A DNA stretch of 64,000 nucleotides, taken from contig CBFFRP010000418.1 of NCBI GenBank assembly GCA_965644295.1, forward strand, positions 1 to 64,000. The letters run 5' to 3'. Below the pieces are notes generated by a model that saw nothing but the letters and a program-made list of their open reading frames with translations, was not told the origin of the DNA and did not search any database. Positions 3-64,000 of the stretch are shown here, piece after piece; the first letter of the stretch is position 1; each line of letters opens with the position of its first letter. The DNA comes from Paraphysomonas bandaiensis. Lineage: Eukaryota > Protista > Chrysophyceae. Both the position numbers and the translations under genes were made by a program.

Positions 3-3000
3 TGGTAATTCCAACTCATCGTACCAAGCATCACCATAAATTCGCAAATCAACATAGGCTAGATCACCAGGTTGAAACTGAGTGATCGGTTGCCTGCGGA
101 AATCCGCGATGTATTTCTTTGCATAGTCAGCAGTATAAATAAGATGGTAAAGATATCGTTTTCGAGAACAGAATTCAGCATAAGGAACGGAATCAAAAAT
201 ATCCTTGCTGTAAGGGACTTCTCGGACATCTCCATCTTGAAAACGCACAGTGAAAACCATGGTAGATCGAACCTCTCTATCACCACGATAATAAAGGATT
301 TCATCAATAACATGTTGATCCTGATCGCGTAAAGCCATTTTATAAGCAGTATCAGAATCTCCCGGAAACAATTTAACATCGCTCACGGAAACACGAACCA
401 CTTGCCCAGTGGCGAGATGTTGACAGTCTACGTCATTCTTGTACTGGGACTTGACTGAGAAAGGTCCCATATACCGGTGAGACATCTTAGGATGAACCTT
501 TGCCCCTTTGTCAAATAAGACAAAATCTCCCGGTTGATACCTATTCTGTCTATCGGGATGCACACCTGTTCCTGCCCTCTCCGTGGCTAACTTTTGCTGA
601 TAAGCTTTGGAAGCCTCTCGGAGTTGGGCTAACTGATCATTAAGCGCAGTGAGTCGAGCATGCGCCCGATCTGGAAGGTCTTTGAGATCCATGTTCAAAT
701 AGTCAAGATCCTTTGAGCCAAACGTCAACTCAAAAGGCGAAAATCCTGTTTCCGAAGACACTTCAGAATTTAGAAGATATTGAACACTTGCTAACCAACT
801 AGGGTCCTCAAAGATGTCTTTTCGTTCCTCCCGTTCACTGTAATCATAGACCAGAGCACGTAGATGTCGAACTACTTCTCCAATAATTCTTTCACATCCA
901 TTTGCATGGCGATTGGCAATACTAAAAGTGTGCCGAACACCCATGTACTCCGTCAACTGTTTGAACAAATCTGAAGTCAAATCCGGTCCTTGATCCGAGA
1001 TTATTAGATCGGTGTGACCGTAATGACTCCAGTATTTCCATATAGTATTCGCAAGATTAAGAGCCGTCACACCTTTGACAGGTTCAAGGTACACAAACTT
1101 GGTGAAAAGATTGACCACCACGTTGATATGTGTATATCCCTCTGCACCGTGCGGTGTAATCTCAACAGCATCTATACCAATCGCGCTACGAGCATTTGGG
1201 GGCTTGAGATTTCGTACGATCGGAATAAGAGCCTCTTTCATAGCCAACCTCGTTTTCACACAATTTGGGCACTTAGAGATATAATCCTCAACAACCTTGT
1301 AAGGAATATTATGACCCGGGAACTCTTTGTTTAAGCGTATCCAGGTAGCCCTTCCCCCCATGTGTCCAACTCGCGCGTTATGAACCTCACGCAACGCCGT
1401 CTCCGGTGATACATGAGATGTTGGAGGGTCCCCAATCTCTCGATCATCCGGGTTCATAAAGTTACCCAGAAAGTTAAAGTACTCATACTCATTACAGTCA
1501 TCCCCCATGAAATAGGCGTCATCATATTCCTCCTCTGGGAATATTCCAGAGAGTATAGCAACCTGATGCTCTCTAGATAACCAGTCCGCCAACCAATTCT
1601 TGGCACCAGATATATGACGAATGCTGAAGTTGAAAGACTGCAAGAATATCCTCCATCGTGTAATCTTTGGAACATCCGAAGATTCCATCCACAATAAATT
1701 GTTATGGTCGGTCTCAATTGTGAATTGCTTGCCTATTAAGTAATAAGCCAAGTGTTTAACACTGTAGAAAATTCCATATGCCTCTTGCTCTATAGTTGAC
1801 CACTTCTGAGCTTGGGCAGAAAACTTTTTGGAAATGAAAGCTATTGGCTGCCACTGTATGCTCCCATCCTCTAATATTTTCTTTTGCAATAACACTGAAC
1901 CTATTCCCAACTCACTAGCGTCAGTACGCAATGTCCACTCAAGATTATAATCCGGATAAAACAGCTCACAAGCGTCTTGTAGTCCGGCGATGAAACGACG
2001 ATACTCTGCCTCGTAGTCATGCCGCCATGTGGACTTATCCCAATTGAAACTCGACTTTGTCATGTCAGTCAAGTGAGCAACTAAATCAGAGTATCTAGGC
2101 GTAAAACTAGAAAAGAATACCCCTTTACCCAGCAACGATCTGGCCTGTTTGGTGTTAGTAGGCATTGGAATCTTGCCGAGAGCCTCCTTCTTGTCGGGAT
2201 TAACCTCATATGACTTGTGACGGCAAACATATCCAAAGAAATCCACCTTTCTAAACCCCAACCAGCTTTTTGGCATCTTAAGTTTCACATTCCTTTCAAT
2301 ACATCTGTCAATGATCTTTTCGAACTTCTCATAAGCATCCTTGGCATCATTAGCCAATATAAGCATGTTATCGAAAATGACTATGGCCCACTCAGAGAAA
2401 TCATCGAATATTTCTCTCACAGTTTCCTGTAAAACACCCGTGGCCGGAGCAATACCCTCTGGCATGAAATTAGGAGCAAATTGCCCCCAAGGCGTCTGAA
2501 TTGATAGGCGCTCAGAAGTTTCATCATCTAATGGAATTTGATGAAAAGCATTTGTTAAATCTATATCCATGTAGAGCGGAAAATTGATAATCTTGTCCAA
2601 CTCATGCTTAACATTAGGAATCGTATAATTTCCCACTTCCATGTGCTTGTTAATTTGCACATAGTCACCACAAAAACGGATGTATGGAGGAGTGGCTTTG
2701 GGAGCAACCACTAGGCATGAAGCCCAAGGAGAACGACTCTTTCGGTAGAAATAGCCACACAGTCGCCGAAACTCCTTCTCCGAAGCCTCCCACAGCTTAG
2801 GATTGATCGGGCGAGCCTTTGGTTTCATTCGATCCGGGAGAGTGCTTTTCCATTTTAGAGACAATGGGTCCACACCTCTCACACCGCTCCATTCGTCAGG
2901 CACGAACACTTTTTCAGCCTTCGTTGACAACAATTCCATAATCTTAGTTTCACTTTTCATTTCATCACTGACATGAGTCTCTATCTGCTCATGATAGTCT

Positions 3001-3761
3001 TGGAGGGCTTCCTCCCTAGACTTTCCTAAGAATGTCAACGCATCCTTGAATTGAACCGGTAACTCGGTTTCCTCATCCTCTGGGGCAATAGCATCACTCG
3101 CTCTTGTCCAGGGGTGCACACGGTCATCAGAGTCAACCGTGTCCCCTGCCAGAGATGACAACACATTCGAATTTTCATTATCGGAGACACCCTCGATTTG
3201 AGTGTCATGTGCCTCACGCATAACAGCGCACATGAAAGGATATAATTTCCCAGTCAGCGCAGGCAACCCCAAAATAATATCATTACTCGTCATATCGATC
3301 ACAAAGAATTCACCCGTATATTGATAGGTGTGACTCTTTGGATCAGTCAGCACTAAATTTAATCTGACTCCTTCATTGAGATCCTTCACCGTTCTACTAT
3401 CCGCCAATACCACACGGTGTTTAGCTTTATAAAAACGGCTCGGTTCTAGTTTGTTCCGCAATTTGTCCACCAAATCCCTCGACACATAATTGGCTGAGAG
3501 GGCTCCAGTGTCACACAATATTTTTACTAACTCCTCTATTCCAAATTTTCTATCTAAAGTAATCCTTCCTATAGTGTGCGCTGAAGAGAAGCTCTTGGAT
3601 GAAGGATAGCAGGCATACAGCTTAGCCTGATCCCTGATACAGACATTGGAGGAATTCGCAAACTCATTAAGATCATTAGAATGCACTGAACATTCATCAT
3701 TCTCATCACGAGTCTTTGAATTGGAATCCTCCTTGTCTGTATCGTTACATCCACCGAACCA
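3..3761 (-). CDS. pol: Pol polyprotein of element A (protease, RT, RNase H, integrase, chromo-like C-terminus), open to window edge
   Basis: Manual translation in the gag frame gives protease LCDTGA (~3501-3518) and DIILG; RT DLTNAFHQ, MPEG and VIFDNML; RNase H TDASELGIG, EQEAYGI and TDHNNL; integrase HNARVGH..CPNC, ISDQG and GCER; and YMGPF. It is missing from the ORF track, consistent with no stop before position 1. Confidence 0.93.
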
Positions 3762-3807
3762 TCAAGGGCGGGAATCACCGAAGTGATCCCTCCTCAAGAT
3801 GGTCGGT
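3753..3807 (-). other. RNA stem-loop spanning the gag stop codon (candidate recoding/splicing signal)
   Basis: Minus strand ACCGA-CCAUC uu GAGG a GGGAUCAC UUCG GUGAUUCC cgc CCUU GAUGG u UCGGU, with a C(UUCG)G tetraloop and the UGA inside the 3' arm. Confidence 0.7.
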
Positions 3808-5570
3808 TGTTTGTCCCTCTGCTCCGAACTTCCCGCAGACTTAAGATACGCATCGATCTTGTCCCGCATTTCGGACGCAGAATCCAACAGACATTTCGCA
3901 TTATGATTATAAGGACAGTCTGTTTTGTCGCACTTGCCATACATGATTTTTCTTAGACACCCATACTTATCGGTCTTATTATTCTGAGCACCAGTTGGTC
4001 TAGCATGCATGGCTGACAGAGACCTATCTGAGTTAAAACGACGCTCCTCATCAACTGCTGCGTCATTACCCGACATTGGTTTCACATCTGTCATCATAGC
4101 GACTTGTTTATCGTCATGTACCTCCAGATTACTGGACCGCCAAGTCTCACTCGGAGCATCCCACAAATCATCATCATTGGGTACATACCCATCATTATCA
4201 TCCCACTCATCGTTATAGTTTCCTCCAGACTCATCGTAAGTATCTAGATGTGCCACTTGCGAAACCCTTGGTTTAGAATCAACACGACTGTTCAACGAAG
4301 GTTTGTTGGACTGTTGAGAGAATAGTTCCTTTCTCCTCTTAAGATAGTCCTCGTGCTTCTGTTGAAACATCGTAGTCGACTCCATAGGTAACTGTCGGTA
4401 CGCGATGGTTACTTGATAATGATCCAAGAGTACAGCCGAATACTCTTTGAAAAATTCGCTCATAGAGTCAAATTTATTTGTCGACATGCACCCCAACACA
4501 TACTTAACATAGGTCCCGTCATTCAAAGTCTTAAAGAGTCTTATCAATCCGTACTCTTTGTCATCGATACGAGGACACCATGTTTTGTTTGAGACCAACA
4601 TGATAGACAACATTGTTTGGAACGATTGCATCAAGTTCAATTGCTGATGATAGAATGCCTCAAAAGTCACAGCATTTACATACTTCCAGTCCATAATTTG
4701 GATATGTTTCAAGGAATCTCTGAGTTCATTATAAAATGCCACGCAATTGAACACCTTGGTCTCCTGAGCCACAATGAGAAGCAAATCTGAAACATCCATT
4801 TGTGCCAGCTGCGCATGTGTGATGCTGTACACATTCCGCAGATGTGCCTTCAAACTGGTTGAAAGTACCTTTTGAATTCGCACCTCAGTTTCTTCTTGCT
4901 CTTGAAACTCTAAGATGTCTTTGATCGCTTTCGCCACTTTACCCAACTTAAAGTCATTGATGCGAACATGACACCTCCTTTCCTCTCTAGTTATGGTAAC
5001 TGTTTTGGCACTAGCCACCTCAGAACTTTTCTTCAAATCCCTGAATAACTTGCCCGCTTTCTTGCCCTTGAAGATGTTATCCATGAGGGTAGGCACATCA
5101 TTAACACCATCACCATCAACATCGGGATTCGAACCATCGTCCTCCTTGTTGCTATCTTCCTCCTGAGGAATAATGCGAAACTTAGCCATGTTTTCCAGAG
5201 TGGAATACCTCGGCTGACGTTTGTGTTTCGACGTGCGTTTGGTAACCTTTTGCCGCTGATGTGAGCCCACAGACGCCTGAGACTGACTGCTCTCACCATC
5301 CTCAACACTTTGTACTCTATCCTCCAATATTTGCATCCTGCTGCTGAGGTTAGACACTGCAGTAGCCACCTCTGTAAAAGACTGAGACATGGCACGAACT
5401 GTATCCAAAATCTCCTGGTTTGGATTGATGTTTGGAGCAGAAGACTCCTGAACGACATCCTGCACACCTCCAGCAGCATCTTGTTTGGTTTCACCACTAC
5501 CAGCGGCTTCCTGATCTTTCCCAGGAGTTTTCTTGCCGCCTCTCCTCGATTTACCAGTCGGAGTAGACAT
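3762..5570 (-). CDS. gag: Gag-like protein of element A (~602 aa) with C-terminal CCCH zinc finger
   Basis: ORF 3762..5597, first ATG at 5570 (MSTPTGK). It lies directly upstream of the protease. Contains CLRKIMYGKCDKTDCPYNH at 3903-3959 and ends in TGA at 3764-3762. Confidence 0.8.
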   Translation of the reverse strand: MSTPTGKSRRGGKKTPGKDQEAAGSGETKQDAAGGVQDVVQESSAPNINPNQEILDTVRAMSQSFTEVATAVSNLSSRMQILEDRVQSVEDGESSQSQASVGSHQRQKVTKRTSKHKRQPRYSTLENMAKFRIIPQEEDSNKEDDGSNPDVDGDGVNDVPTLMDNIFKGKKAGKLFRDLKKSSEVASAKTVTITREERRCHVRINDFKLGKVAKAIKDILEFQEQEETEVRIQKVLSTSLKAHLRNVYSITHAQLAQMDVSDLLLIVAQETKVFNCVAFYNELRDSLKHIQIMDWKYVNAVTFEAFYHQQLNLMQSFQTMLSIMLVSNKTWCPRIDDKEYGLIRLFKTLNDGTYVKYVLGCMSTNKFDSMSEFFKEYSAVLLDHYQVTIAYRQLPMESTTMFQQKHEDYLKRRKELFSQQSNKPSLNSRVDSKPRVSQVAHLDTYDESGGNYNDEWDDNDGYVPNDDDLWDAPSETWRSSNLEVHDDKQVAMMTDVKPMSGNDAAVDEERRFNSDRSLSAMHARPTGAQNNKTDKYGCLRKIMYGKCDKTDCPYNHNAKCLLDSASEMRDKIDAYLKSAGSSEQRDKQPTILRRDHFGDSRP

Positions 5571-8106
5571 GGTTACTGAGAAGAACTTCCGCCTCAAAGA
5601 CTATATCCACCAAACTTTTCCCTAACACACTGAGACAAGCAACCCTGGCAACTCCTAGAACCACTGACCCAGAACTCAACAACACACCAAGACCCCACAA
5701 GACAAATCCCAAAGACAACCCTGCGTAAGAATCCAAAACCTCAACACTCAACACTCAACACTCAAACCCGTTGAACCCGTCGGATTTGTACAAGTGACAA
5801 CAGTTAACACACAGGCGGTATCCACGGTCGATTGACTTCGAAAAGAACCGAATTTCCTCAGTCACCACACTGTGTATCAAACAATCACCACTGAACAAAG
5901 AGCCTAGAGAACAACTACTGACAACTCACACCCAGAGAACAACAGACAACCAACAACAACAGGCAACCGAAGGCAACAGACAACAAGCCCAGAGAATCAA
6001 GCCCAAAGAAGCGTGTCGCAGTTAGTTTCTTATAAGAGTGTGAAACAACAGCGCAAAGACAGAAATTTCTGTACGAGCAGTAAAGTAAATATTTACTATA
6101 ACAACACCCGGTTTGATAACCAGGGTGTTGGCTCGTAAACAATAAAACTACAACAACACCTACACTGAACCAACAAGCACAGTAATAACGGTATTATTAT
6201 TAAAACACTTTTTTCCAAGTTTAGACCTAAACTCAGTTAGTGACTCCCGCGAAGAGTCACCGCGCAATGGTATACCGCTGGCACCCAAGATCACTAGCAC
6301 CAAGCTTTGGTCTAACTTAAAACAAGTGATAAACACCATAGAAGCATATATGCACACACACACACTCCTAACATGGTACAACACACGTGGTGTCATCACA
6401 CCACCACAGGTTGCGTAACTCTTCAAAACTGAAAAATACACAGCAACCTGATAGGGAGTGACTCACCAGCATATGCCGAGAGTACACCGTATACTACGTA
6501 TCTATACCCTACCAGAGACTGAAAACCCCACAATCCAGGAAATACATAAATACGGTACGTATAGTACGTATAGTACGCATACCACATTTGCAATCGAACC
6601 CCAATAAGCCTTGCATAAACACTCGTGCACCTCAAGTGTATAATAGCGACTTCTCTCTTATGATGGTCACATGTACTTGCCCCCCTATAGGGTAGTACGG
6701 GTAATACATGTGTGTATGTATATGGAAGTATATACTGCAACTGCTATACAGGAATACGGGCCCACATAACTTTGATATAAATTTGCAGCAGGTTTCACAT
6801 CGACCGAAGTCACCAGCAGCAGATCCTAGTCGTACATCATCATCAGCAGATAAAATTGGACATCATACCCGAACGTTGGCTCAATATGTAGGTACACTGT
6901 GGTACATTACCAATGTCCAAATGGTGTTGCATAATATGTATCCTGAACACAATGAAGGTCCTAAAGCAATATATAGGGTCCTGATATAGGGTCCTAAACC
7001 AACATAGGGTCCTAAAAGTCAATGTAACCATGCATGTGACTCAATAGCGTGATACTATAGCCACGTAGATAGGGCATGGGAAATGCCACGTGGTCACAAT
7101 AATGCTAGAAAAAGTCAATCATACTTTAAGTATAGTTTTTTCATGCTGGATAGATTGGGTGGATTTTTAATTTCCAAGCTTTTTTTTATTTTTTTTTATC
7201 TTTAAAAATATTATCCGTTTTATCCAAGTTGTCATCTTGTTACTTTTTGGGTGTATAAAATGGATAACTTAATAATATTATTATTTAAAGTATAGTATTA
7301 TTAATATTATTATATAAGCTATAATTATTATATTTAAAGATAGAGTGGAAAGGAAGAGTAATAAAACGAACGTTTTATTACGATACGGAGAGCCCTTCTG
7401 GCTCAGGAAGAATGCCTAAGCGGCACAGAGCGCTCCCCCATCCCTCCGCCTCGCTGTGTTTCATGCTTCCACTTGATGATCCTGAGAAGGAGATGTTAGT
7501 AAGTGAATTGCTAAATAAATAGGTTATTAGATTTCGTGGGGAAACCCAGTACAAATTGGTGGAACTGAATAAACAGTTTGCGTCATTTAGAATTCTACAG
7601 GGTGAGCTGGTATACCTAAACCGGGGTGTCACACCGAGTGCAGCTATGTATATGAAACGAATGTGTAAATATGACAACAAAGTAGCAAATGTGAAGATGA
7701 ATACGCTTACTACTATGCTTTGCAACTGCCTGAGCACCCTCAAGCACTTATCTGAAGACGCCTCCTCAAACGTGTTAAAAGCAAGGCTAGTAACTCAATA
7801 ATAACTGCACATAGAACACAAACAACTCATACAGAACCATTTATATTCTATGAACTATCTAGAAACACAGCAGAGAACACAGAACAATATTCTGCAAAAG
7901 ATTCCACAAGATTTGGTTAATTATGTGGAGATATCCACCTTCTGGAAGATTCACGTAGAGGCCTATAGGAAGAGCCTTAAACCAACTCAACAGCCACAGA
8001 CCAAAAATGCAGTGACTAGCCAATCAGCGTTCAGCAGTAATACATAATACAGCAGCTGTATAGTGATAGTCCCTACATGTACCTATAACTGCAAACAGAC
8101 CACCGT

Positions 8107-8211: not shown

Positions 8212-9138
8212 AGATCTCTCCATTGCTCATACAGCAAAAACAGCAGCACTTGTAATCCGAGAGTGAAGTGTGTCTTCATCCGAAGATAAGATGCAGGCTG
8301 TACATACACACACCGTCCTCTAGAGCCCCCCTTGTAGCATACTAACCACACTGGTCTGTTGTGGTCTATGAATAGTTTAACGCCTCAGCGTGACAAAGGA
8401 ACAAGACTCGGCGGATCAAAGTGGGAGTGGAACATGTGGATTCGACTGTAGAGCAGGAAATAGAGCGTTACTCTATTTATCTATGTATACAAGGCCGGGT
8501 ATCTCATACGCACTGGGAGTATTGTCACGATTCTTAACGAAAATGAAGATCACTGTGATACATTTAATGCAGTCAGTATGTACGAGGTACAACGGAAGAA
8601 GGCATTTAATAGAGAGGGAAAGATTATGATCTTCACATGTTCATTGATGCTGACTGGGCGGGTGATCCGTTGACGAGGAGATCAACTTCAGGTTGTGTTA
8701 CGTTTGGAGCTGGTGGGCCACTATCATGGGGTTCCAAACTTCAGTCTACTGTGGCTACATCGACTATGCAAGCTGAGTATCAATGCTTATATAACGGATT
8801 ACAGGAAATGATATGGTCTCGGGGCGTGACTGGAGAAGTAGGGTTGAAAATTGACGAGCCCACACCAGTATTCCTTGAATGTCAAAGTGCTCAGGATATA
8901 TCTGAAAATCCAGTACACCGTCAACGATCGAAACATACATATTGAGATTAAGTATCATATGATTCGAGAGCATGTGGATCCCGTACAGTTTAATACAGCA
9001 AAGTTAATTCATGTGAGCAGTCGACAACAGATGGCTGATATATATACCAAGGCTTTGTGTGGTCCAATATTCATTGAACAGAGGGAGCGAAATCTTGGGG
9101 GGAAATTTAAGACTACTGAACAATTTATCACAGAGGTA

Positions 9139-9334
9139 CCCAAGGAGACGTTTTTCGACAAAGCGGACCAGTCTGGTCCCACTTTATATTTTTGTATTGT
9201 GTTTTTTCGTATGGAATATGAGTGTAGAGCTTTGAAATTGTGGTCAAAATGACCACAATTTTTTTATTTCGAGTGGGACCATCTACAGTCCGACAAGTGG
9301 AGGGCTGGTCCTTTGTCAAAAAACGACTCCAAGG
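9139..9334. mobile_element. Tc1/mariner-type MITE nested in the Copia ORF end
   Basis: ~30-bp imperfect TIRs (ccaaggagacgtttttcgacaaagcggaccag / ctggtcctttgtcaaaaaacgactccaagg), TA on both flanks. Removing it restores ..TEV-KRAHRN-stop. Confidence 0.8.
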
Positions 9335-13300: not shown

Positions 13301-13923
13301 TACCACTAGCTACAAAAAACAGTATACATATCATACAGTCAACTTACTTCCTAGATGAATAGTCACAGTGACACCAATCATAACACACACACAGCCTCAT
13401 ATCATACAGTCAACTTACTTCCTAGATGTCAATAGTCACAGTGATACCAATCATAACACACACACATACACACAGCCTCATATCATACAGTCAACTTACT
13501 TCCTAGATGTCAATAGTCACAGTGATACCAATCATAACACACACACATACACACAGCCTCATATCATACAGTCAACTTACTTCCTAGATGACTGAAGGCA
13601 CAGTGATACCAATCATAACACACACACATACACACACAGTCTCATATCATACAGTCAACTTACTTCCTAGATGTCAATAGTTTCAATACGATCCCATCAT
13701 CAGACTTTGATAAAATAAAATCCTTATCCATTCTAAGAGGATCCTCACCAGGGGCTGATAGTTCAATGGATATATCATGTTCATCCGCATCAAATCCCAC
13801 CCCTTTAATTCTTAGTTTCGGAGCTCTGTCATATATGGTCTGAACCTGAGGAACTATCGTGACCTCCGCGACAGTCAATCCTATCGCTACACTAGCTAAA
13901 ATTGAGCAAAATATTCCACGCAT
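10370..13923 (-). CDS. Type-I membrane/cell-surface protein with six IPT/TIG-like repeats and two Cys/Asp-rich modules
   Basis: Exons 13923-13664, 12993-10860, 10798-10696 and 10647-10370 join in frame at GT-AG sites. Signal peptide MRGIFCSILASVAIGLTVA, six I(Y/H)...IxGxGF repeats, two CxxxC..A.DG.CDD...C..GTDC.DCG modules and a C-terminal TM helix. Confidence 0.85.
13326..13680. repeat. Intronic tandem repeat (71-83 bp period) containing five copies of the exon1/intron1 junction
   Basis: cagtcaacttacttcctagatg at 13336, 13407, 13488, 13569 and 13652. Confidence 0.95.
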
Positions 13924-14226: not shown

Positions 14227-14358
14227 CAGGGGGTGGTTGTGCATATCGATTTTATCATTTATTTCATTGAAAAGTCATCGTTTTTCCATTGAAAAGTCAC
14301 TTTTTTTCACTTTTCACTGAAAAAACGATGACTTTTCAATGAAATAATCGACATACAG
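14227..14358. mobile_element. Foldback MITE family 1, copy 1
   Basis: Leader ggtggttgtgcatatcgatttta, then ~25-bp inverted arms atttcattgaaaagtcatcgttttt / aaaaaacgatgacttttcaatgaaat. Homologous copies at ~29983 and ~34495. Confidence 0.8.
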
Positions 14359-19193: not shown

Positions 19194-20987
19194 TGATAGA
19201 TTGATTATATAAAGCGAACACAGGCTCATTATTACCACACTCATTCACCTCTCAATGCTTCCATACTTTGAGTCAATTCTTGTTGTCTCTGTTGTCTGTG
19301 CTGTCTTATGTTTCCTCCCTCCAGCCCTTCAACTCCCACTTCTACTTCGTACAGCCTCTTTAACAGACGCTCTCACATCATACATCTTTCAAATGTCTCT
19401 TGTAGCTGCAGTTGCTTCATCAGCTCCTGTTATCATCGACACTATCATGGACAGCTATAAACTTCCTAGAAACTTCTTGTATCCGAAATGGTTGTTATTG
19501 TTCTCACTCACAGTCCCCAATACAGTCATGTTGATATATAACACCAATACAAGTATATTCTTCTGTGCAATGCATGCAAGAGAAATCATGCTTGTGTTGT
19601 CCCTTCTATCTTATTTAGTGTCTGATAAGAAGGAAATACGTATAACTCGTGGAGCTTGTTGTCTGGCTGCCTGCTTTGCTGTATCCATCTTACTTAACAA
19701 TTTCAACGGATACTTCGATGACACTCATATAGAGAATTCTTCACTGGTGTTGTCATTTTTAGCCCTTCTCGGGATTTTTTTCCTTTGTGGATATAAACTA
19801 TACACACTTTTCCATCAAAAAGCTACCGATGACTGCTTCCGCTACACAGTGGTGTACACGATTAGCCTCTGCTTCAATTTGTTAGGCAAATGGATTGTAT
19901 GGGTATTAACGGGTAGTCATGGTTGGTCACAGACTGTGGCGCCACAAATTGCGGGATACACATTTATCGATATGACGACAGTTATATTTGCCTCAACAAT
20001 TCCCGGACGGATAGCCAGACATGAAGCTACTCTATTGCAGGTAAAAAACCGCATGATGAATAGAATAATGGTGTTGCATAGTGCAGCATATGCAGTGATA
20101 TGATGACCGCAATGTCAATATGGGCACTTTCTTGCCATAGCTGTTTGTGCTAATATTATTGTGTAATCGTAGATAAAGCTGGAAGCAAAGAAGAACTTTG
20201 TGCGTTATGTCTCACATGAGATCCGCACTCCTCTCAACACCGTATTCTTGGGTCTTCAAGTCTTAACTGACCGCTTAAACGTGAAGGAGTTAAAGAGTCA
20301 AGTGGGGAGTGAAGGACGAGAGCTCTGCAAAGACCTTAAGTCTGCATGCTGGGTGGCTATCGAGATGTTAAATGATCTCCTGCTTTTTGACAAGATCGAG
20401 GAAGGTCAAATTGTACTTGAGAAACGCACTGTTCGTTTCCTGCCCGTTCTTCGTGAGACTCTGTCAATGTTCAGTGTCCAAGCGCAGGCTGCTGGTGTAA
20501 TTCTCGAGACACCGAAGGTAGACGATATATCACCTCATCTCGAGAATGCTATGATTCATGTGGACGTGAAAAAGTTTTCCCAAATCGTTCGAAATATTGT
20601 TTCCAATGCACTCAAGTTTTCTCCTGAAGGAGGAGTTGTGACTGTCCGAGCACTGTTGAAGCCTAAACCTGGTAGTGAAAACTTACCTGATGATGACGAG
20701 AAAAGCACTAGCAGCAGTGTTTTTGACGGTGCTGGCAGTGTGCTGAGGCTTGAGGTGAAAGACTCGGGACCAGGCCTTACAGAGGTGAGTGAGTTTGTAC
20801 TCAGTATGTGTGGGGCTCTGTTAGTGATGATGTGTATAGGAACAACAGAAGCAGCTATTTCGTGATATCGTTCAGTTCAATGCGGCAGACTTACAGGGTG
20901 GAGGAGGATCAGGACTAGGCATGTGGATCTCCAAGGCTATCATTGATAAGCATGGGGGTAATATTGGAGTTGAGTCAAGTGGTATAC

Positions 20988-21304
20988 TGTAGGACTATCC
21001 ACTTACATATAGAATATATACGTGTACATGTCCTGTATTATATGATTAGTAGTACAGTACTGTATTGTATACGTGTACCATGTAGTTAGGAATACAAACT
21101 GTAGGGAATGTGATTGTTGGGATTAGCAATAGCCGTTGATATTGTAGACAGTATTATTAGCCGTTGATATTGTAGACAGTATTATTAGCCGTTGATATTG
21201 TAGACAGTATTATTCATGATTCATTATACGATAATAATCATTATTTTGTACTTCTGTACTTGGGTATTGCTTTGCACACATACACATATGTATGCAAGCC
21301 CACA
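20988..21304 (+). repeat. 5' LTR of element B
   Basis: Identical by eye to 26253-26569. Contains 3x 28-bp tagccgttgatattgtagacagtattat. Confidence 0.97.
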
Positions 21305-21353
21305 GTAATATTACTTAATAAGTAGTACTCAATCTCTGTGATATAACAATATT

Positions 21354-24300
21354 ATGGGGGAAAGTAAGAGAAGCAAAATAAAAGCAGCTCCTCAAATAGA
21401 GGAATTGTTAGCTGCTTCGGGTTCTTCGTCTAAAAAGACGAAAAGAGAGAGAGAATCCTCTCGAAAACGAGCAAGAGATGCAACAACATCATCTCAAATG
21501 CAATCTTCTCCTCAAACTGAGACATCAGTAGAGGCTGAAGGAGAATTGAGTGGAGTATCATTTCGTGAGCTCTCTTCTTCTCAACCAAAGAGAAAGAAGC
21601 AAAGGAGTGGAGATCCGCACCCCAACAGGAGTGAGCGCATTGACTTGAATGAAGTCATTGCGACGGAATCCACTCCACATGAAGTAATCAATACCGACTC
21701 TATTCCCTACTTAGGTAGTGTGCAAGATGAGGATATCATCGAATTTTGTGAAAATCTCTCGAAAAGAGATCCTAAAGGGACAAAATTCATAAGGTCAGAA
21801 ATCATGGCACCAACAGTGCGTGATATGCTTCAGTTTCAGCGACAGCAGGATTTTGGAGATGAGTCTGACGAGGACTGGCTAGATCCAAACATTGTAACTA
21901 CTGAGGAATTGATTCAGTGGTTAAAGCAAGCCTTTCTAGAGGAAGAGGAGCGATACTCTGATACATTGGAGCCTCTTCCTAGGTTCATAGATAATATCAT
22001 TGGACCAAAGGTTAAGGTGGATATTCATGTTCCTAAAGTATTCTTAAAAGAATATGGACGTCTGAATGAGCTTTATAAGCTCATTCCGGAGGCAAGTCTC
22101 ACAGAGGTAGCCTCGGATACCATAGTCAAAACCCTCAAGAAAAACATTAAACTTGTGGGCGGACATTCCTTCAGAAAGGATGCCAAAGAGAAATTTATAG
22201 CGGATATAGGCCAAGGTCAATCTGCACCAAAAGATTTCGGAGCATTCTGTAGAAAGGTGCGAGAGCTTAACAATGACTATAGTCAAGCTGTGAGAAAAGT
22301 AAAGAGGATGGAAACTAAATTGGATTCCAAAGAAACATCTAAGTCTAACAAGACTAAGAATACAAAAACTTCATCCTCCAGCTCATCCTCAAGTACTAAA
22401 GCAACAACTGATACTAAGGAAGCATGTTGGATATGCGGTAATCTTCATAAAGGTGACTGCACCCGCAAAACCTGTGCATGGGCTAACCATGAAAAGAAGC
22501 CATGGAAAGATTCCACACAGGGCAAAAAATATGCGGTTATGGGTTGGAGTACCTGCCCTTATGTGGAGAATCCTGATGGTCCTCCAAGATCGAAAACAAG
22601 TAAGTTATCATGCCCTAAGTGTTTATATATAAATGCTATTGACATGAATAATGATATGCTCGATGTCTTTGTATATCCTAAAGCTGATGTCAATGTACAA
22701 CAGGTAAAGGAAAATCTAAGAGCTAAAGCCTTATTGGACACGGGGGCTACTGGGAATAATTTCATTAACCAAGAACTTGCTGATATGTTAGTTGCTAGGT
22801 ATAGAATTCCATTGCACGAGTGTAACATTAAAATTTGTAGTGCGCTTGATAATGCTTGTTGTAGTAGCAAGCAATATATGATAATAACTATAAGATTAAC
22901 TGATGAGTATAACAATACTCTTGATATTGAGTTGCAATGTTTGATAATAGATAGCACCTTTGATATCATAATTGGTAGAGAAACTATCAAGAAATATAGA
23001 TTAGTTGATCATTTTCCATCTCACTTTATGGAAAGAGAGTTAGCAGGGAAAATGCTAGCTACGGCCGCGGGCCATGCTGAGAAGACTCAGCTTCTCTCGG
23101 AACATATTAGTGAGAGAGCCACATGTTATAATAACATGGAAACATTAAGGCGCCAAGCTAAGGAACACCTTAGTTATAATAATAATTTACTTACAAGTAA
23201 TAGCTTGGTTAGTACTATGTATTCACCTCCAATATCATCCATGCGTATAAGTGCATATGAAAAGGAAGATATAGGCGAGATTAGAGATAACTATCTGGAG
23301 TCAATCCCAGAAGAAATAGTTACAAATACTCAGGAAAAAGTAGAAGGTACTACGTTACCAACTAAAATCTCTGGTCCCGAATCTTTACAAAGGAGGGTGA
23401 GAGAAATCCATGAAATCTATAAGGATAGATTTAGAACCACAGTGTCGGATATGCCAATGGATGTTCCACCTTTTGAATTAGAGGTAGATAGGGATGCTTG
23501 GGAACAACCAAAACATTGTGGTCCGCCACGAAAGATGGATCGAGTACGACAGTATGCTTGTAAAAAGCAAATCGATACATTTGTGGAGCATGGAATAATA
23601 CAACCAAGTACGGCTCCTTATTATAGCCAGGTATTATTAGTTCCCAAACCAAATGATAAATGGCGATTCTGTGTAGACTATAAAGGTCTAAACAAGCACA
23701 CACAGAGGGAACGTTGGCCAATACCTAACATCAAAGAAATGTTAGAACGTATTGGGTCTAAGAAACCCAAATACTTCATAATTCTGGATTTAGTATCTGG
23801 TTATTACCAGGCTAAAATTTCAGAGTACTCGAGAAAGTGGACGGCATTTATAACCTTCTGGGGAGTATTCGAATGGCTCCGACTACCCATGGGTTTGAGT
23901 GGTGCTCCATCATACTTTCAACGAGTATTAACAACAATTGTGCTTGCCGGGTTGATTATGTTCATATGTGAATTATATCTAGATGACCTGATTATATATG
24001 CTTCTACAGAAGATGAACTAATTGAAAATTACGTTAAAGTTCTAGAACGCTTCAGGAAATACAATGTTTACATTAATCCTGAGAAAGTGAAAATAGGAGA
24101 GTCCGAAGTACAATATGTAGGACATACTCTAAATGAGGAAGGGTTACACTTTACTAGAGAACGTCTGGATAGTGTATTAAATTTCCCAAAGCCTGAAACT
24201 ATGAAGGGTCTAAAATCTTTCCTCGGATTGGCAAATTATTTTCGGGATCACGTGCACAACCACTCCTTAGTGGTGAGACCGTTAAATAAAATGCTTCTCA

Positions 24301-26187
24301 ACTATCATAGACGTAAACGTCTACAATGGACAGAGGATGCCAATGAAGCATTTGAAAAGATCAAATTGATGATCCATGAATGTCCAACATTATTTTTCAT
24401 TGATGACGAGTCACCAATATATTTATTGACCGATGCATCTGATTATGGAATAGGAGCATACCTCTACCAAGTAGTAGATGGTGTAGAACGTCCAATAGGA
24501 TTTCTCAGTAAAACATTCGATGAAAGAATGATGAATTGGGATACACCTCAGAAAGAAGGATATGCTATATACTATGCCTTAGATAAATGGGACTACCTAT
24601 TAAGGTATAGATACTTTACGATCAAAACAGATCATAAAAATATTACTCAGTTGAGAACTGATTACGCTAAGGATAAGAAAGTTCAGCGATGGTTGAAATG
24701 TTTCCAAGCATATGATTATGATCTATGTGATATTAAAGGATCTGATAATGTTGTTGCTGATGCATTTAGTAGACTATGTGCATTAGAATCTAAAATGGAA
24801 ACAAAATGTGCTTCCCTAATTCCCGATATTAAAGTTCCAAACAAGGAATGGGAAATTATTAAAAGATTTCATAACAATGTTACAGGTCATCATGGTATTG
24901 ATCGTACAATACAAAAATTACGAGACAATGGTCATAAATGGTCAAAGCAAGGGGCACATGTGACAAAATTTATTAAAACTTGTCCTTGTTGTCAAAAGAT
25001 GAGTAGAATTAAACCAATAATTAATGCTCATCCCTTTACTGTCTCAACATATGGCCCGATGCAAAGAATAGCAGTGGATTTTATTCAGAGTCTGCATCCA
25101 GATGAGGATGGATACACTAATATATTAGTGATTATCGATTCTTTTTCTAGGTGGGTAGAATTAATCCCTACTAAGAATCTCACTGCCATGGCGGCGGCAA
25201 AGGGGATTGCTTCAACACCTGGGTAGATATGGAGCACCTATTGAGATTCATTCGGATCTTGGACCAGCATTTGTGGATGATTTAACAAAATCATTGATAG
25301 AAATGGTTGGAAGTAATCAATCATTTTCGATGGCGTATTCTAAAGAAGAAAATGCTATAGTGGAACGTGCTAATAAAGAAATTTTAAGGCACTTAAGAAA
25401 TATTATATTTGATAAAAATGTACTAAATAATTGGTCAATGTATCTACCTTTAGTACAAAGAATTATGAATTCTTCTAAACATAGAAGCACCGGCGTTACT
25501 CCCGCTAGTATTCTATTTGGGAATGCAGTAGATTTAGATAAGAGTTTATTCATTGAACACAATGAGAACTTGGACGGGAACGAACAAAAGCTATCACATT
25601 GGATAGATAGAATACAAAAGGTTCAGTCCACTATTATGGATGTTGCAAGACGAAATCTTCGCAAACATGATGAAATCCACATGGCAACTGCACCAAATAT
25701 ACAAACAAAAGAATTTCCAATAAATTCTTATGTGTTAGTTGAGCATAGACAAAATGCTTTACGTCCTGGACCGGCAAGTAAGTTATTACCATATCTTAAA
25801 GGTCCAATGCGAGTAGTCAATGTTATTGGAGACAAATATACTCTTCAAGATATTGTTACTAAACGTAATAAAGACTATCATATAAAGAAATTAAGGGAAT
25901 TTAATTACGATCCCTCTACTATTGACCCCTTACAAGTGGCATGTAAAGATGGTGGAAACTTTTATGCTATTGACCATATTTCAAAAATAAAAGGTCGAGC
26001 TAAAGGTCCGAAAAGTCAAATAAAATTTCTAGTACATTGGATAGGGTATGAAAAACCTACATGGGAACCATGGGCTAACGTTAGAAAAACGTATGCTCTA
26101 CAAAATTTCCTAACTCAACATCCTGATGAAAATGTAAGAAATTTACTACCTCGAAATGTGGTTTATTCTTCTGATGAAGAAGATTAA
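21354..26187 (+). CDS. pol: Gag-Pol polyprotein of element B with one +1 frameshift at ~25202-25205 inside the integrase core
   Basis: CWICGNLHKGDC knuckle, LLDTGA, YLDD, TDASDYGIG, HHCC, AVDF / HSDLG / VERAN, KGPMRV, chromodomain FLVHWIGYEKPTWEP. ORFs 21354..25226 and 25207..26187. Confidence 0.93.
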
Positions 26188-26252
26188 TAACAAAGTTTAC
26201 AGAATTGAGTGTCAATATAACACATTAACACATCAATTATAAGGGGAGGTAG

Positions 26253-26569
26253 TGTAGGACTATCCACTTACATATAGAATATATACGTGTACATGTCCTG
26301 TATTATATGATTAGTAGTACAGTACTGTATTGTATACGTGTACCATGTAGTTAGGAATACAAACTGTAGGGAATGTGATTGTTGGGATTAGCAATAGCCG
26401 TTGATATTGTAGACAGTATTATTAGCCGTTGATATTGTAGACAGTATTATTAGCCGTTGATATTGTAGACAGTATTATTCATGATTCATTATACGATAAT
26501 AATCATTATTTTGTACTTCTGTACTTGGGTATTGCTTTGCACACATACACATATGTATGCAAGCCCACA
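26253..26569 (+). repeat. 3' LTR of element B
   Basis: Follows the PPT and matches the 5' LTR. Confidence 0.97.
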
Positions 26570-29500
26570 ATACCGGGTGAAGGATCTCTATTCTTTGTTG
26601 AGGTTGATACCGCCAGTTTCATAGATCATGGTACTAGCAGTGTGTCCCTTGGATTTACTCCTTTGTCCTCTCATGCTCCCTCGGATGATGATATTCTAGA
26701 ACTGGAGATGCCCCGTAACGGAAGACTCAGCAGTAGTGAATCGATTGTGGAAAAAGAAATCACACCTCAGTCATCTGTAAATTCATCAGTGACTCCTTTG
26801 GCCCCAGTTCTTCTGGGAATGACAAGTGCTTTTGTTGTTGATGACTCTCCTCTCAATCGCAAGATGTTGAGGGCAATGCTCAAAAAAGATTTCGTTGAGG
26901 TATTTGAAGCTGTGGATGGTATAGATGCTTTAGAGCAATACGAGGCTCGCGTAAAGCAAGGAAAAAATTTTGATGTTATATTTATGGACGACGGTAAGTT
27001 TTTAGTCCATATATATATAACGTTTTTCGTACAACTACATGGTTAAGTGTGTACTAATGCTAATGATTCAGGAATGCCCCGTATGAAAGGTAGAGATGCC
27101 ATTAAGGTATTGCGTGAAGAACTGGGGTATGTCGGACCCATATTAGCAGTCACGGGTAATATGTTGACCGATGATGTCGAGGCTTTGCACAAGGCTGGAG
27201 CAAACGCAGTCTGCGAGAAACCCCTCGACGTAGGTAGAATGAGAAGCATACTTCAGAGTTACTTGGCAAACAACAATGCCTAAATGACAACTACATTTTC
27301 CTGAACTTTATCAATTGGTGTTTATGTAATTTCTTTGCATGTTCGTAATTGTTTATTCCTTGTTAAAAGTGAAGTATGGTTAATGGTGCCGATATGTTAA
27401 AGTAGCTAAAAATTGAAGAGTAGAATGTAGTAGCCATACTTCCTTATTGGTTGGTAAGTGGTAATATATATAGGATTATATTTGAGGTGTGATTCCACAA
27501 CACGCGCATCAGGTATTAAAATTTAAAAGGAACCTCATATATTTTAGAGTCAGTCATCACTCCTTCATTGCAGAAGTAGTCAGCAGCAAACGTAGTTCTA
27601 TAGTAATGTTGTCGGAAGGAGCAATGTCGTCTCAGAGGGAACAATATATAGACGACAAACGGTGGGTCATATTAATGAGCGAACACTTGTTTATTTTCAA
27701 ATCTTCAGCAGACCCTGGGTATCAGTTAATACATTGTTTGCGTTAGATTCTTATTTCCATTTTTTCACTAAGAAAGAAGAAGTATTTTTGCAAGACTAGA
27801 TTCAACAGAACGCTGATATCATTATCACCGGGCATTCTCTTATGTAAATACGACTGATTCGAAACAATACTACTTTAATTTTTCATTTGCTTTCATTATG
27901 TTTATCTATTTCCGTAATATATTTGTCCCTCCTACTAAATTTTAACCGACGTTACTACAAAACAAGAAAGTGCCAATTGTCATTTTTAGTTTAGTAGGAA
28001 CATTTGCAAAATTTAGTAGGAACAAATGGAAACATACACATGCATGCGTTTGCTGCAAATTATCGACAAATCTTGAGCATATATAAATTTCACCTAATCT
28101 TATAGTTCATTACAGTACCATCTAGTTCTCATTATTGCTTGTGCATGTAACAGAAAAGCAATAACTGTACCCCAATGAATGAACTTATTATTACTCAACA
28201 GCCCAATAGTACTCCAGCTACACACTCTACTACTCTAGTCTCTAGTACCACTACTTATTACCTGACACTAGCCGGGAGTCTCTGGAGCTTAAAGTCATTC
28301 CTGATGCATTTCTCTTTTTACCACGACTGAGAGCATTGCTCAGTAAGTCGAGTATATCCACTACCTCACCTGCATGGTCTTCTTTTTCCATTTCAAACAC
28401 GGTTTCATGCTGTAAATCAGCACATGAATCAACGACATACTCGGACTGAACTTTCACTGCGCATTTCAAATGCTTTTCTCCCCTCCAATACTAATAGTCA
28501 TAGTGCTTGCTTGCGTCATCTTCAATAACCTCTAGACATACACTCTCCGCTTTTCTACAGGTCATGGGAACCCACTTGTCACGCTCATTTTGTCGATAAT
28601 GAGGCATAAACCTTTACAATAGATCTCCCGCATAGTATTGAAGCTTGCAATACGAACTCACAGTTAATAATGGCACGATTCACAGTGTATTCGCTCTCTC
28701 AAACTCCGTCTTTCGATACTTAGTAACACTTACATTCGACACGTAGTAACCTTTCGACACTTAGTACTTAGTAACACCTACTTCTATTCACACTTTGTAA
28801 CAACTTAGTAACACTATATAGTATACATATATATATATTAGTACGTTTAGAAACGGCACCGACATATATGTAGGCTTACAGCAAGAAAACCAGAAATAGC
28901 TACACATCTAGACATTAGGTTTTCAAAATCGCGAGAATAGGCTACAATTAAACCTAGGGATAAGGAGTATCATCTCTCGTCCAAATTTAAAAACTTAGGC
29001 TTTTCAAAATTTCGAGCGCGGTGCAATATAACCTCCTCAGTACCCGTCGTTAAATAGAGTTATAACTATGTCTAGTGGCTAGTGGTTATATATATAGAAG
29101 TATGTTTACAGTAATTGAAGTATAGAGAGTATAGAGTATAGAGAAGAACTATGTGCTGCTGTAAATGGTGCAGGTGATATAGATATGCATGTAGCAAAAT
29201 TTAGAGTCAGATATTACTGTATATAATTGGGTGCATATAGAGTATAGGTTATGTGTATAAGGGTACTTTTATTAAACACGAGGAAAAGGGTTGAGGTATT
29301 TTTTTACGCATATTCATGCGCTCTGAACGTATAAGAAGATACCCTCGTCAAAAGGAGCGTCTAATTGAGGGGTAATGTTACTTTCCGGTTTTTACCATTT
29401 CCCCGGAGTGCTTTTGAGGTAATTTAAGGTAACTCTCTTAGTGATATAAATGCATTAATTTCATTGAATATAATCACATTAGACGACATTGTGCATATAT

Positions 29501-49617: not shown

Positions 49618-50385
49618 TGTATTAATACAGGACTATGGTTGAGATGGATATGGGGGATTGATGTGCATGATTAGAGGTGTTCTGGTGTTGTGTAAGTGAA
49701 TAGCACTGGGAGTCGATGTCATGGGAGCCTATCTACTCTGACTATATGTATGTAGGTACGTACTATTCACAGGGAGGCACATACTATATACAATATACTG
49801 TACCATATGCTGTATGTATATGTATACTGCTGTATAACAGCCGTAGTACTACTATAGCATATGATATATAATGCATATGGATATGTGTGTATGTAGACCA
49901 CGAACACTGCTGGATATTTCTCATACTTTCTGTATGTATGTGTAGGTCTGTATGGTGGTAGGAATTCCGCCCTTCTCTGTACGTACTTGATTGTACCTGT
50001 ACACCCACAGAACATGTACCTATACACCCTCTGTATATATATCATTTTACTCACACTGTACCTCTACACCCTCCATATGTACCTCTCCATCACCCAGTAC
50101 CTATCTATCTATCTATGCATCTATCTGCCTCATCGTAGCTATCCATCACTCTTCCATACTCCTCACTCACACATAGACAGACACCCCATTACACACTTTA
50201 ATTAACAAACACCCTCTCTTTTACCATATCCCTATCACATGAACACCTCTGGACGATCACAGTGCGCATAGAATTGACGTTTAAGGTACATCACCAGCCT
50301 CTCTATATATATATAACTATACGTGTATTGTATAGATAATACATACATATATAACACAACACTCTAAATACACACAGATACACTC

Positions 50386-62300: not shown

Positions 62301-64000
62301 TACCCTAACCTGAGCTTGGAGGGACAGACCAAAGCTAAAGTTTTGAGTGGTCTAGTAGCCGACGAGTTAGTTGACAAATTTGTAGAGGCCCTTGGTGGAC
62401 TTACTCACCCTGAGTTGAGATGGAGTGATGGGGTCAAGCGGGTGGCTGAGCTCTTCAGACTAAAAAAAGGCAAAGAGGCAGAGGAGTATCATCAAGAATT
62501 AGTTGCAGCCACAACTTCTACTGAATGGGAGCTGGTGGGAACGAAAATAGGAGCATATAATATGAGGTTAAAACCATACGATGCTACCTTGTGTGTAAAT
62601 TGAGTGACTGTTTTTTATTGCGTCTCAGGTTTGCGCGGTACATGGCGAAGAAACGTGTCGTAGCAGGTACTCGAGGCAGCGGGTCTCAGCGGACTAGTCA
62701 GAGCAGGGGACGAGGAAGCTCTAGTAGCTGTAACGTCGGGCTCTCGTCTGGTCTCGTGGATGAGTTGCTCGAAGAGTCTAGGGATCTTTCGAGCGGAGGT
62801 CGAGGGTGGTCTATGAGATTTTCATCCGGAAAGGTTCCAGTAACGGAGTTTTCTGAGTGGTTGGCTGATCTGGGTCCTTTATTGCTTTCTATGTCATCAT
62901 CCTCCCTTTCTCATCAGATAGAAGTGCCAGGACAATATAGCAACTGTGAGAGAGAACCTATGGTCAACCAACATGCCACAATCCTTTCCGTTGGTCCAGA
63001 GCTACTTGTTATGTCATCCATTCGCAAACCTAAGCGTTTATCTATTTTGAGCAGCACTGGCGAGGAAGTAAAGTTCCTCGTGAAAGGCGGGGAAGATCTA
63101 AGAAATGATGAGAGAATTGAGCAGCTTTTTATGCTCATGAATACTATCGTGACTAGTCATAGGTCGTCAGAGGGAGGACCCTCTGGAGGAAAAAGAGATA
63201 GACTTAGAGCGCGAACGTTTTCTGTTATTCCTATGACTCCAAAAGTAGGAGTATTGGAGTGGGTTCCGAATACTGTCCCCCTCAAAAGCATTGTGTCCGA
63301 GGAAATGGCGCTAGACTCTGACTTTCTCAAGTTAAATCCAGGTTGTTTGAAAACAGGTGCCAAGTCGGTGGACTTATCAAGTATTGTTGCCTCGAAAAAG
63401 AGATTGGACTGGTTAAAGGGTAGTTATCAAGCCAATGACTACCACACTATGTTTGTGAAAGCTAAGGCAGAACATGCTCGTACGCTGTGGAAAAAAATAG
63501 CCCGGACGACACCCCAGGACTATCTTCGACGTAGATTCATCCGCATGTCTCCTTCTCCCGAAGTGTTTCTTACCCTCCGATCAGAGTGTGCGATCTCTCT
63601 TGCTGTCAGCAGTATATTCGGGTACATCCTTGGTATTGGAGACAGGCATCTAGATAACTTACTAATTGACATACGAGCTGGTAGTGTGGTGCAAATAGAC
63701 TTTGGGATATGTTTTGGTATGGGTGCGAGCGTGTTGCCTGTACCAGAATTAATTCCATTTCGACTCACCGGTCAACTTCGGTCACTCTTCACTCCTTTAG
63801 ATGGCACGAATCTTTTGCGACACTATATGGTGGAGACTCTGAGTGGAATTAGAGGGGAGGATGGGAGGAGTGCGCTTTGTAATGCCCTGGAAGTATATGT
63901 GAACGATCCCGTTGTTGACTGGCTGAAAGGGTCAGTCACTAAAGCTGAAATGGAAACTGTACGCGATGATGTTAAGTGGGAGCCAAGAAGGAGGATAGCC
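50386..64000 (+). CDS. PRKDC: DNA-dependent protein kinase catalytic subunit, 3' end outside window
   Basis: >4000 codons over several exons. HEAT-like N-terminus, S/TQ cluster at ~59400-59760, YRDGELPD at 59934-59957, FAT region, kinase motifs FLVKGGEDLRNDERIEQLF, GIGDRHLDN, DFG and LPVPELIPFRLT. The last exon, from 62629, is open to the window end. Confidence 0.96.

Follow-up and report, generated by a model that had tools for sequence, protein, structure and literature searches.

The gag-UGA-pol layout is already known from LTR retrotransposons, among them Tj1, the Tosmo elements and Tca2. An in-frame TGA between gag and pol has been described for Tj1, Tosmo1-3 and Tcry1 (PMC4600332; bioRxiv 2022.12.06.519325), and in Candida albicans Tca2 has gag-UGA-pol in frame, with a predicted 3' structure and with Pol made from full-length RNA (PMC2194720). 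Removing the Tj1 stop abolishes transposition (PMC4600332), and the local sequence of Tca2 was insufficient, giving no readthrough in yeast (PMC2194720). Among retroviruses, murine leukemia virus (MuLV) is the model of gag-pol readthrough (PMC8310308, PMC5009743); splicing was long assumed there and was later disproved (PMC8310308). In alphaviruses, a stem-loop of ~140 nt, set off from the stop by a spacer of 8-9 nt, stimulates readthrough up to about 10-fold (Firth et al. 2011, PMC3159437). Our literature search, made mostly in openly available papers, returned no paper joining LTR retrotransposon, stramenopile, gypsy and readthrough, and no description of the clade reported below.

Here we analyse an element on the minus strand of a 64,000-nt stretch of Paraphysomonas bandaiensis DNA (the window). 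Its Gag ends in ..GDSRP-TGA, and the same frame resumes with WFGGC.. and continues for 1253 codons without a further stop to the window edge. The minus-strand frame and translation thus bear out what a sequence-only reading of this DNA had proposed, that Gag and Pol share one frame split by a single UGA. That reading had also placed the stop exactly at the boundary between nucleocapsid and protease, which is wrong, as the UGA lies 46 codons past the CCCH-type finger of Gag and 83 codons ahead of the protease Asp. It had further called in-frame stop readthrough typical of gammaretroviruses, but the same layout was already on record for the Ty3/gypsy elements Tj1, Tosmo1-3 and Tcry1. The features of the element are collected in the table below.

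Features of the element and of its gag/pol junction; positions are those of the window.
Feature	Position	Strand	Remarks
gag ORF	3762..5570	-	602 aa + TGA; ATG at 5570; conserved C-terminus LRRD[HR]FGDSRP
CCCH-type finger of Gag, C-x8-C-x4-C-x3-H	3903..3959	-	likely the nucleocapsid-like part
In-frame UGA at the gag/pol boundary, context CCU-UGA-UGG	3762..3764	-	predicted readthrough site
pol ORF, 1253 codons	3..3761	-	order PR-RT-RNase H-IN; truncated by window edge
Aspartic protease motif LCDTGA	3501..3518	-	Asp is codon 84 after the stop
RT motif A, D-I-D-L-T	2553..2567	-	extra Asp two residues ahead of the catalytic Asp
RT motif C, IFDN(ML)	2361..2378	-	YLDD in Ty3
Stop-spanning hairpin, C(UUCG)G loop 3782-3779	3753..3807	-	predicted
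Rod-like stem-loop, 108 nt, +19 to +126 after the stop	3636..3743	-	predicted; perfect 10-bp base helix; candidate readthrough stimulator
Candidate 42-nt GT..CAG intron	3737..3778	-	rejected as chance pair

Pol contains the DTG motif at aa 84, RVT_1 at 384-511, RT_RNaseH at 604-710 and rve at 863-950 (Pfam and motif), which is the Ty3/gypsy order of protease, RT, RNase H and integrase downstream of gag. The top PDB sequence matches to Pol were Ty3 Gag-Pol and RT (7q5b and 4ol8; E 5e-52 and 3e-40), with retroviral RTs ranking below them in this sequence search; the RT tree described below holds no named reference elements. No second copy of the element's 5' region was found within the 64-kb window, and the element's 3' end falls past the window edge. 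Because LTRs, primer binding site and target-site duplication lie outside what the window shows, we file the element as Ty3/gypsy-like only. Pfam gave no chromo domain match at E 0.1 in Pol, whose C-terminus is truncated by the window edge; from aa 1151 onward Pol looks chromo-like, by eye only. The usual Gag zinc finger is a CCHC knuckle. The finger found here matches Pfam zf-CCCH_12 weakly (E 0.064, under the cut-off), and a CCCH-type finger occurs in both split and fused relatives. The element was found in marine DNA and RNA sequencing runs from 14 studies, and polyA RNA contigs (X16) lie on parts of the leader and the start of gag (5034-5900, minus strand), one of them with a 10-nt deletion at 5688. 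These RNA contigs, low in depth and possibly including DNA carry-over, suggest that the element is transcribed in the sea. The host is a eukaryote with introns, and for one of its proteins the two best Atlas clusters consist mostly of diatom sequences among those of known taxon, which points to a possible stramenopile host.

The window holds a second Ty3/gypsy element on the plus strand (20985-26549), with identical 300-nt LTR repeats, a fused gag-pol ORF (21342-25226) and YLDD in its RT. Its frame breaks inside integrase, where the ORFs overlap at 25165-25226, its end is chromodomain-like by eye, and fragments of a host histidine-kinase gene flank it on either side (20173-20865 and 26441-27046). 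Broken ORF pieces at 8613-9252 (plus strand) resemble copia-type RT/RNase H by eye (FIDADWAGD.., IEIKYHMIRE..). Also on the plus strand, at 50368-64000, lies a very long host gene with few exons, putative introns of 47-62 nt and a PI3K-like kinase domain at its end; by eye it is DNA-PKcs-like. At 13327-13719 a unit of 81 nt recurs in tandem about 4-5 times, and at 14259-14347 the arms of a 39-bp inverted repeat are separated by 11 nt.

Copies of the element were studied through contigs of sequencing runs (X-numbered), compared over 2600-5000, and through related loci (L-numbered). Of the 174 differences in the DNA contigs 40 are listed, so that the deep run X1 is covered in part, and two of these contigs are completely accounted for. 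One (X13 record 9) spans the whole of 2600-5000 with 23 differences, all of them located, 18 of them synonymous and none within 3753-3807; the other (X4 record 20) reaches across the junction and carries 14 differences, again all located and none within 3753-3807. The same interval is free of the 11 differences, 11/11 located, of a contig that may be DNA or RNA (X9 record 20). The UGA is identical in sister copies from separate studies, in DNA and in RNA contigs. A contig in X3 matches 3759-3800 only, and its unmatched ends resemble L005 by eye. The end of Gag is similarly fixed. Twelve of the 15 listed members of the element's 90% Gag cluster share an identical end, the remaining three being fragments; at 33-49% identity there are 14 further Gag relatives, most of which (11) finish in the same C-terminal block, while three finish early. 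The finger is present in 38 of the best 72 profile matches, and in 35 of these 38 Gag ends 36-52 residues past it, the exceptions lying at 27, 28 and 150 residues (P0151 being the last).

Six related loci were retrieved, four of which cover the junction (L001, L002, L003 and L005; gag 35-47% identical); we did not count L004, L006 and L008, one contig that stops short of the junction, or L007, which duplicates L005. All four relatives carry gag-TGA-pol in a single frame, L003 being frameshifted downstream, at the protease motif. The linker that follows the stop has diverged in sequence, yet its pol frame is free of stops in all five elements, and the protease Asp is in frame at codon 84, 86, 86 and 81 after the stop (L003, frameshifted at that motif, excepted). 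A linker that stays open and keeps the Asp in frame despite divergence is as expected if ribosomes traverse it. The stop is followed by UGG in the window's element and L005, by CUA-G in L001 and by CAA in L002 and L003, giving a C after UGA in 3/5, and the codon before it varies as well (CCU-UGA-UGG, GCU-UGA-CUA, AAA or CGU-UGA-CAA). Sequence comparison thus supports a conserved control point between gag and pol at this UGA, as opposed to a private nonsense change. L005 (G001) and L004/L006 (G002) are retrotransposon pieces on contigs of two bacterial MAGs; in L004/L006, bacterial genes are joined to a gag fragment, likely through mis-binning or a chimeric contig.

We placed the element in a tree built on RT and RNase H, whose 119 rows are this element, 117 matches and the window's second element as root. 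The input was the best 120 of 362 Pol matches, from which we omitted P0017 (the element's own cluster) and, because they cover too little of the region, P0061 and P0062. Among these best 120 of 362 matches, a clade of 71 rows with support 0.994 comprises 66 split, 5 unclassifiable and 0 fused Gag-Pol proteins, and outside it 36 of 48 rows are fused; 'split' is taken from gene calls, the other clade members being proteins only, and a frameshift or a cut contig is possible in any single case. The best Pol matches of the four DNA relatives fall within the 71-row clade. A search with the gag alignment for fused Gag-Pol of 1141-3255 aa, a weak search, found none among 5202 candidates. A metagenome scan with the Pol protein gave no relative, nor did viral contigs searched with the gag and Pol alignments. 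A relative with 84% Pol identity is present in an MMETSP transcript (P0338, P0340; cluster of P0019), and a cultured host may therefore exist.

Two predicted RNA structures accompany the stop. The sequence-only reading had described a hairpin from 3807 to 3753 with a C(UUCG)G loop that holds the UGA, and the RNA is predicted to fold in just this way: 3807 pairs with 3753, the U of the UGA lies in a UU/UU internal loop, and its G and A are paired. The fold has -29.9 kcal/mol and z -3.8 against dinucleotide shuffles (z -2.0 for a wider window of 131 nt). Synonymous-codon shuffles were as stable in 0/500 cases for the window's element, 1/500 for L005, 13/500 for L001 and 231/500 for L002; L003 has a different hairpin at its stop, matched by 5/500. 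L005 and L001 (loop C-CUCG-G) thus keep a stable hairpin, L003 has another in its place and L002 has none. In a comparison of three sequences, both partners differ in 4 of the 15 pairs (4/500 shuffles; this count is descriptive, and the L001 alignment imperfect). L005 shows compensatory changes, and the hairpin of L001 is similar in shape; two-sequence alifold counts were given little weight because the structure was fitted to the pair. A universal UUCG loop was rejected, as the Gag ends of several relatives (H-V-G, H-F-S, H-P-G) are unable to encode the loop in register, and Rfam has no family at gathering level in 3400-6600.

Downstream of the stop, the sequence-only reading overlooked a longer predicted rod, for which support in the relatives is modest. 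The fold of +10..+159 has -55.5 kcal/mol and z -6.1, and 0/300 synonymous shuffles were as stable, in a window chosen after seeing this element. Rods are predicted in all five elements, with apexes near +65 to +80, and are strong only in this one; in the relatives they are individually weak (11, 30, 30 and 35 of 300 synonymous shuffles as stable), with a Fisher p of 0.011 for the four relatives alone and 0.016 without L003. The apical helix lies in the same register (+67..72/+78..83) in this element and L005, despite their diverged linkers. The first firm helix begins at +19 in the window's element and at +25, +54, +26 and +32 in the relatives. When 46 windows were scanned along the sequence, the z values averaged over the five elements were lowest in the two that flank the stop (-2.93 and -2.34); the first downstream window is the lowest of the 46 only when this element is included, and the relatives alone give about -2.1 there versus about -2.4 at offset -240 (by hand). 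Differences from sister copies at 3635, 3708 and 3746 flank or fall in the rod; with the change at 3635 the rod base would gain a pair, and that at 3746 alters the branch-like motif of the candidate intron.

We conclude that readthrough, which the sequence-only reading had listed as an alternative, is the best explanation of this junction, and that programmed UGA readthrough very probably occurs in this element. It is supported by the single in-frame UGA, by its retention in sister copies and in all four relatives, and by the open, in-frame linker. Most ribosomes would stop at the UGA and release Gag, and a few would continue and make Gag-Pol. We judge on balance that local RNA structure aids this readthrough, and to the whole reading, in which Pol is made via programmed UGA readthrough raised by the 3' rod, we assign a probability of about 0.6. 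By analogy with alphaviruses, the 108-nt rod would be the part that raises readthrough. A structure that holds a stop is unwound before the stop enters the decoding site. Because a stop-spanning hairpin must melt in this way, the UUCG hairpin would more plausibly act as a pause, an attenuator or a Gag/packaging signal than as the direct stimulator, and this is the weakest step of the proposed mechanism. An attenuating effect of this kind is on record for frameshifting, which hairpins upstream of the site reduce in PEMV and SARS-CoV (PMC4737148).

Some observations count against this reading. UGA-CUA-G, the context of L001, is known to be leaky (PMC3159437, bioRxiv 2022.12.06.519325); the UGA-UGG of this element is without a +4 C; the available part of Firth et al. 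lists UGA-UGG for only one divergent furovirus (PMC3159437). The firm helix starts at +19 or later, as against a spacer of 8-9 nt in alphaviruses and MuLV, and the mRNA channel accommodates about 11-12 nt beyond the A site (PMC13517186); with so long a spacer, the rod is less sure as a stimulator. In addition, the relatives carry in-frame AUGs in the linker, and the Gag of P0151 extends 150 aa past the finger.

Several other explanations were weighed against structure-aided readthrough. Readthrough could depend instead on codon context or a distant element, with the local structures serving packaging, dimerisation or Gag binding. The long spacers ahead of the rod, its weak scores in relatives, the insufficiency of the local Tca2 sequence (PMC2194720) and the context of L001, leaky on its own, all speak for this view; we still consider it unlikely, because both structures lie right next to or around the stop, which is also flanked by the two windows with the lowest mean z among the 46 (all five elements averaged), because the rod apex keeps its register in L005, and because this copy combines a non-leaky context with the strongest rod. 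It is quite unlikely that Pol is made apart from Gag, by reinitiation, by internal initiation or from a pol-only mRNA that arises at a junction promoter or by long-range splicing. Tca2 does have a minor junction promoter (PMC2194720), all four relatives have in-frame linker AUGs, and in this copy, as in L005, the stop forms part of a UGAUG. However, the 83 codons before the protease Asp contain no in-frame AUG in this copy, the linker AUGs of the relatives lie at unshared positions, and an untranslated linker need not stay open and in frame, yet it does so in 5/5. No joint into the junction region was found in four runs. The AUG of UGAUG is out of frame, opens only 5 codons and is missing in 3/4 relatives, and a stop-start arrangement was rejected. 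That the UGA arose by a nonsense mutation private to one dead copy, or by a sequencing error there, is next to impossible: many gypsy elements do use one ORF, including the window's second element up to its integrase break, but the sister copies from separate studies retain the UGA in place of any sense codon, which refutes a private change, the four relatives all have it, and dozens of clusters share the point at which Gag ends. Reassignment of UGA to Trp in the host was ruled out by five long host ORFs, which contain 0 internal TGA and 6-29 TGG each. Selenocysteine was also rejected, with no sign of a Cys site and the position inside a variable linker.

The headline of the sequence-only reading was a 42-nt micro-intron, gated by the hairpin, that would be removed together with the stop from a small share of transcripts. 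Its motifs do exist (GT at 3778, TGTAAC and a CAG ending at 3737), and removal of the 42 nt would be in frame. Host introns, said in that reading to be as short as 48 nt, can indeed approach this length, the shortest of four putative ones picked by eye being 47 nt; copia sets its ratio by splicing (PMC2194720), and a 5% isoform could escape contigs. Nevertheless, we regard the micro-intron as very unlikely, since such pairs are this common by chance: in-frame GT..YAG pairs of 36-48 nt span 20-26% of codons in the five elements, and the stricter GTR..CAG spans 13% of codons in this one. The pair is kept in none of the four relatives. In L005 the donor is GC, and in place of an acceptor at 42 nt there is just a TAG that would make the intron 60 nt; L002 lacks any GT..YAG pair of 30-75 nt, and the pairs present in L001 and L003 are unrelated ones. 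The candidate has 52% GC and a purine-rich 3' end (6/17 pyrimidines before the AG), in contrast to 37-42% GC and 9-13/17 pyrimidines in the four putative host introns (47, 53, 62 and 132 nt), and its acceptor lies inside the rod's 10-bp helix. An RNA contig (X15 record 4; 3567-4754, depth 5.5) bridges the site without a gap, with 8/8 differences elsewhere than 3762-3764, and a polyA contig (X16 record 8; 3738-3942) has 0 differences and is identical through donor and UGA; both are unspliced. No 3779^3736 joint was seen in four runs, in which one RNA contig bridges the site and one partly covers it at a depth of ~5, run X19 having no coverage at the junction; the RNA contigs are low in depth, drop rare forms and may include DNA, and they speak for the major form only. 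The same two contigs bear on A-to-I editing within the hairpin, the other alternative of that reading, by which the UGA would become a codon read as UGG in some transcripts. The A of the stop does lie in a predicted duplex, but 3762-3764 are unchanged in both contigs, at low depth, and L002 keeps the UGA without the hairpin. Moreover, this A is Watson-Crick paired with a G as its 5' neighbour, and ADAR-type enzymes disfavour an A with a 5' G; we find editing hardly credible.

The RT of this lineage has changed at its active site. Motif C reads [IMLV][FY]DN in 118 of the 119 tree rows and YLDD in the remaining one, the window's second element, and an extra Asp stands at -2 of the motif A Asp in 118/118 related rows, with Ile at that place in the second element (rows drawn from the best 120 of 362 Pol matches). 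The general RT signature YxDD, which is an enzyme signature and not a family definition, is absent from motif C here (IFDN). In Ty1 the same Asp-to-Asn change lowers kpol 223-fold, and transposition is lost (PMC2148107). The new motif A Asp could possibly compensate for the lost one, which, judging from the alignment, would amount to a rewired catalytic triad. As the change is found in fused relatives too, it is wider than the UGA clade, and by inheritance it may represent a single event. None of the papers listed by our literature search concerns a natural case of this RT Asp-to-Asn change. A natural substitution fixed in 118/118 relatives together with a new Asp offers a direct test of the flexibility of the catalytic triad.

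A broader picture can be drawn only tentatively, and with more doubt than belief. It would be that of a large undescribed protist Ty3/gypsy clade in which a fused Gag-Pol ORF gave way, a single time, to UGA readthrough, using a two-structure RNA switch (the stop-holding UUCG hairpin and the 108-nt 3' rod) for which leaky contexts (UGA-CUAG, UGA-CAA) can stand in and vice versa, within a wider lineage whose RT active site was rewired, the last Asp of YxDD becoming Asn and a new motif A Asp taking over its job. The clade supplies many natural variants that hold the UGA and its position constant as context and structure change, and it could show what makes stops leaky outside RNA viruses. Readthrough of the viral style, with a 3' stem-loop, would also be extended to a protist retrotransposon. 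There is also a practical side, in that gene callers split such elements and a splice-aware caller could invent an intron.

How, then, does this locus compare with the systems already described? Ty3 shares the PR-RT-RH-IN order but uses a frameshift and has YLDD, where this lineage has [FY]DN and the extra motif A Asp. In Tca2, a Ty1/copia element, a spacer of 8 nt separates the stop from a predicted pseudoknot; here the predicted structure is a rod. Moloney murine leukemia virus sets its Gag:Gag-Pol ratio by an in-frame gag/pol stop (PMC8310308), but it does so with UAG and a compact pseudoknot 8 nt downstream, in contrast to the UGA found in 5/5 elements here and the predicted rod. As far as the available accounts go, the likeness to readthrough of the alphavirus and furovirus type lies in a UGA followed by a predicted stem-loop of ~100-150 nt, and in the UGA-CUA of the relative L001. 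Those are RNA viruses with measured stimulation, whereas here the structure is predicted only, its firm helix starts at +19 or later and a second hairpin holds the stop; the alphavirus-type contexts UGA-CUA and UGA-CGG are not in this copy (UGG), and CUA occurs only in L001. Tj1, Tosmo1-3 and Tcry1, Ty3/gypsy chromoviruses of fission yeast, share with this element, from what the available parts of their descriptions give, the gypsy domain order, one in-frame TGA and a Pol without its own AUG. They belong to another host group, and the truncated Pol of the element here has no chromodomain match at E 0.1. Those elements share a fixed 8-nt GAA-TGA-CT, but in the five elements studied here GAA precedes the stop in none and CT follows it in L001 only: the flanks vary, and large predicted RNA structures flank the stop.
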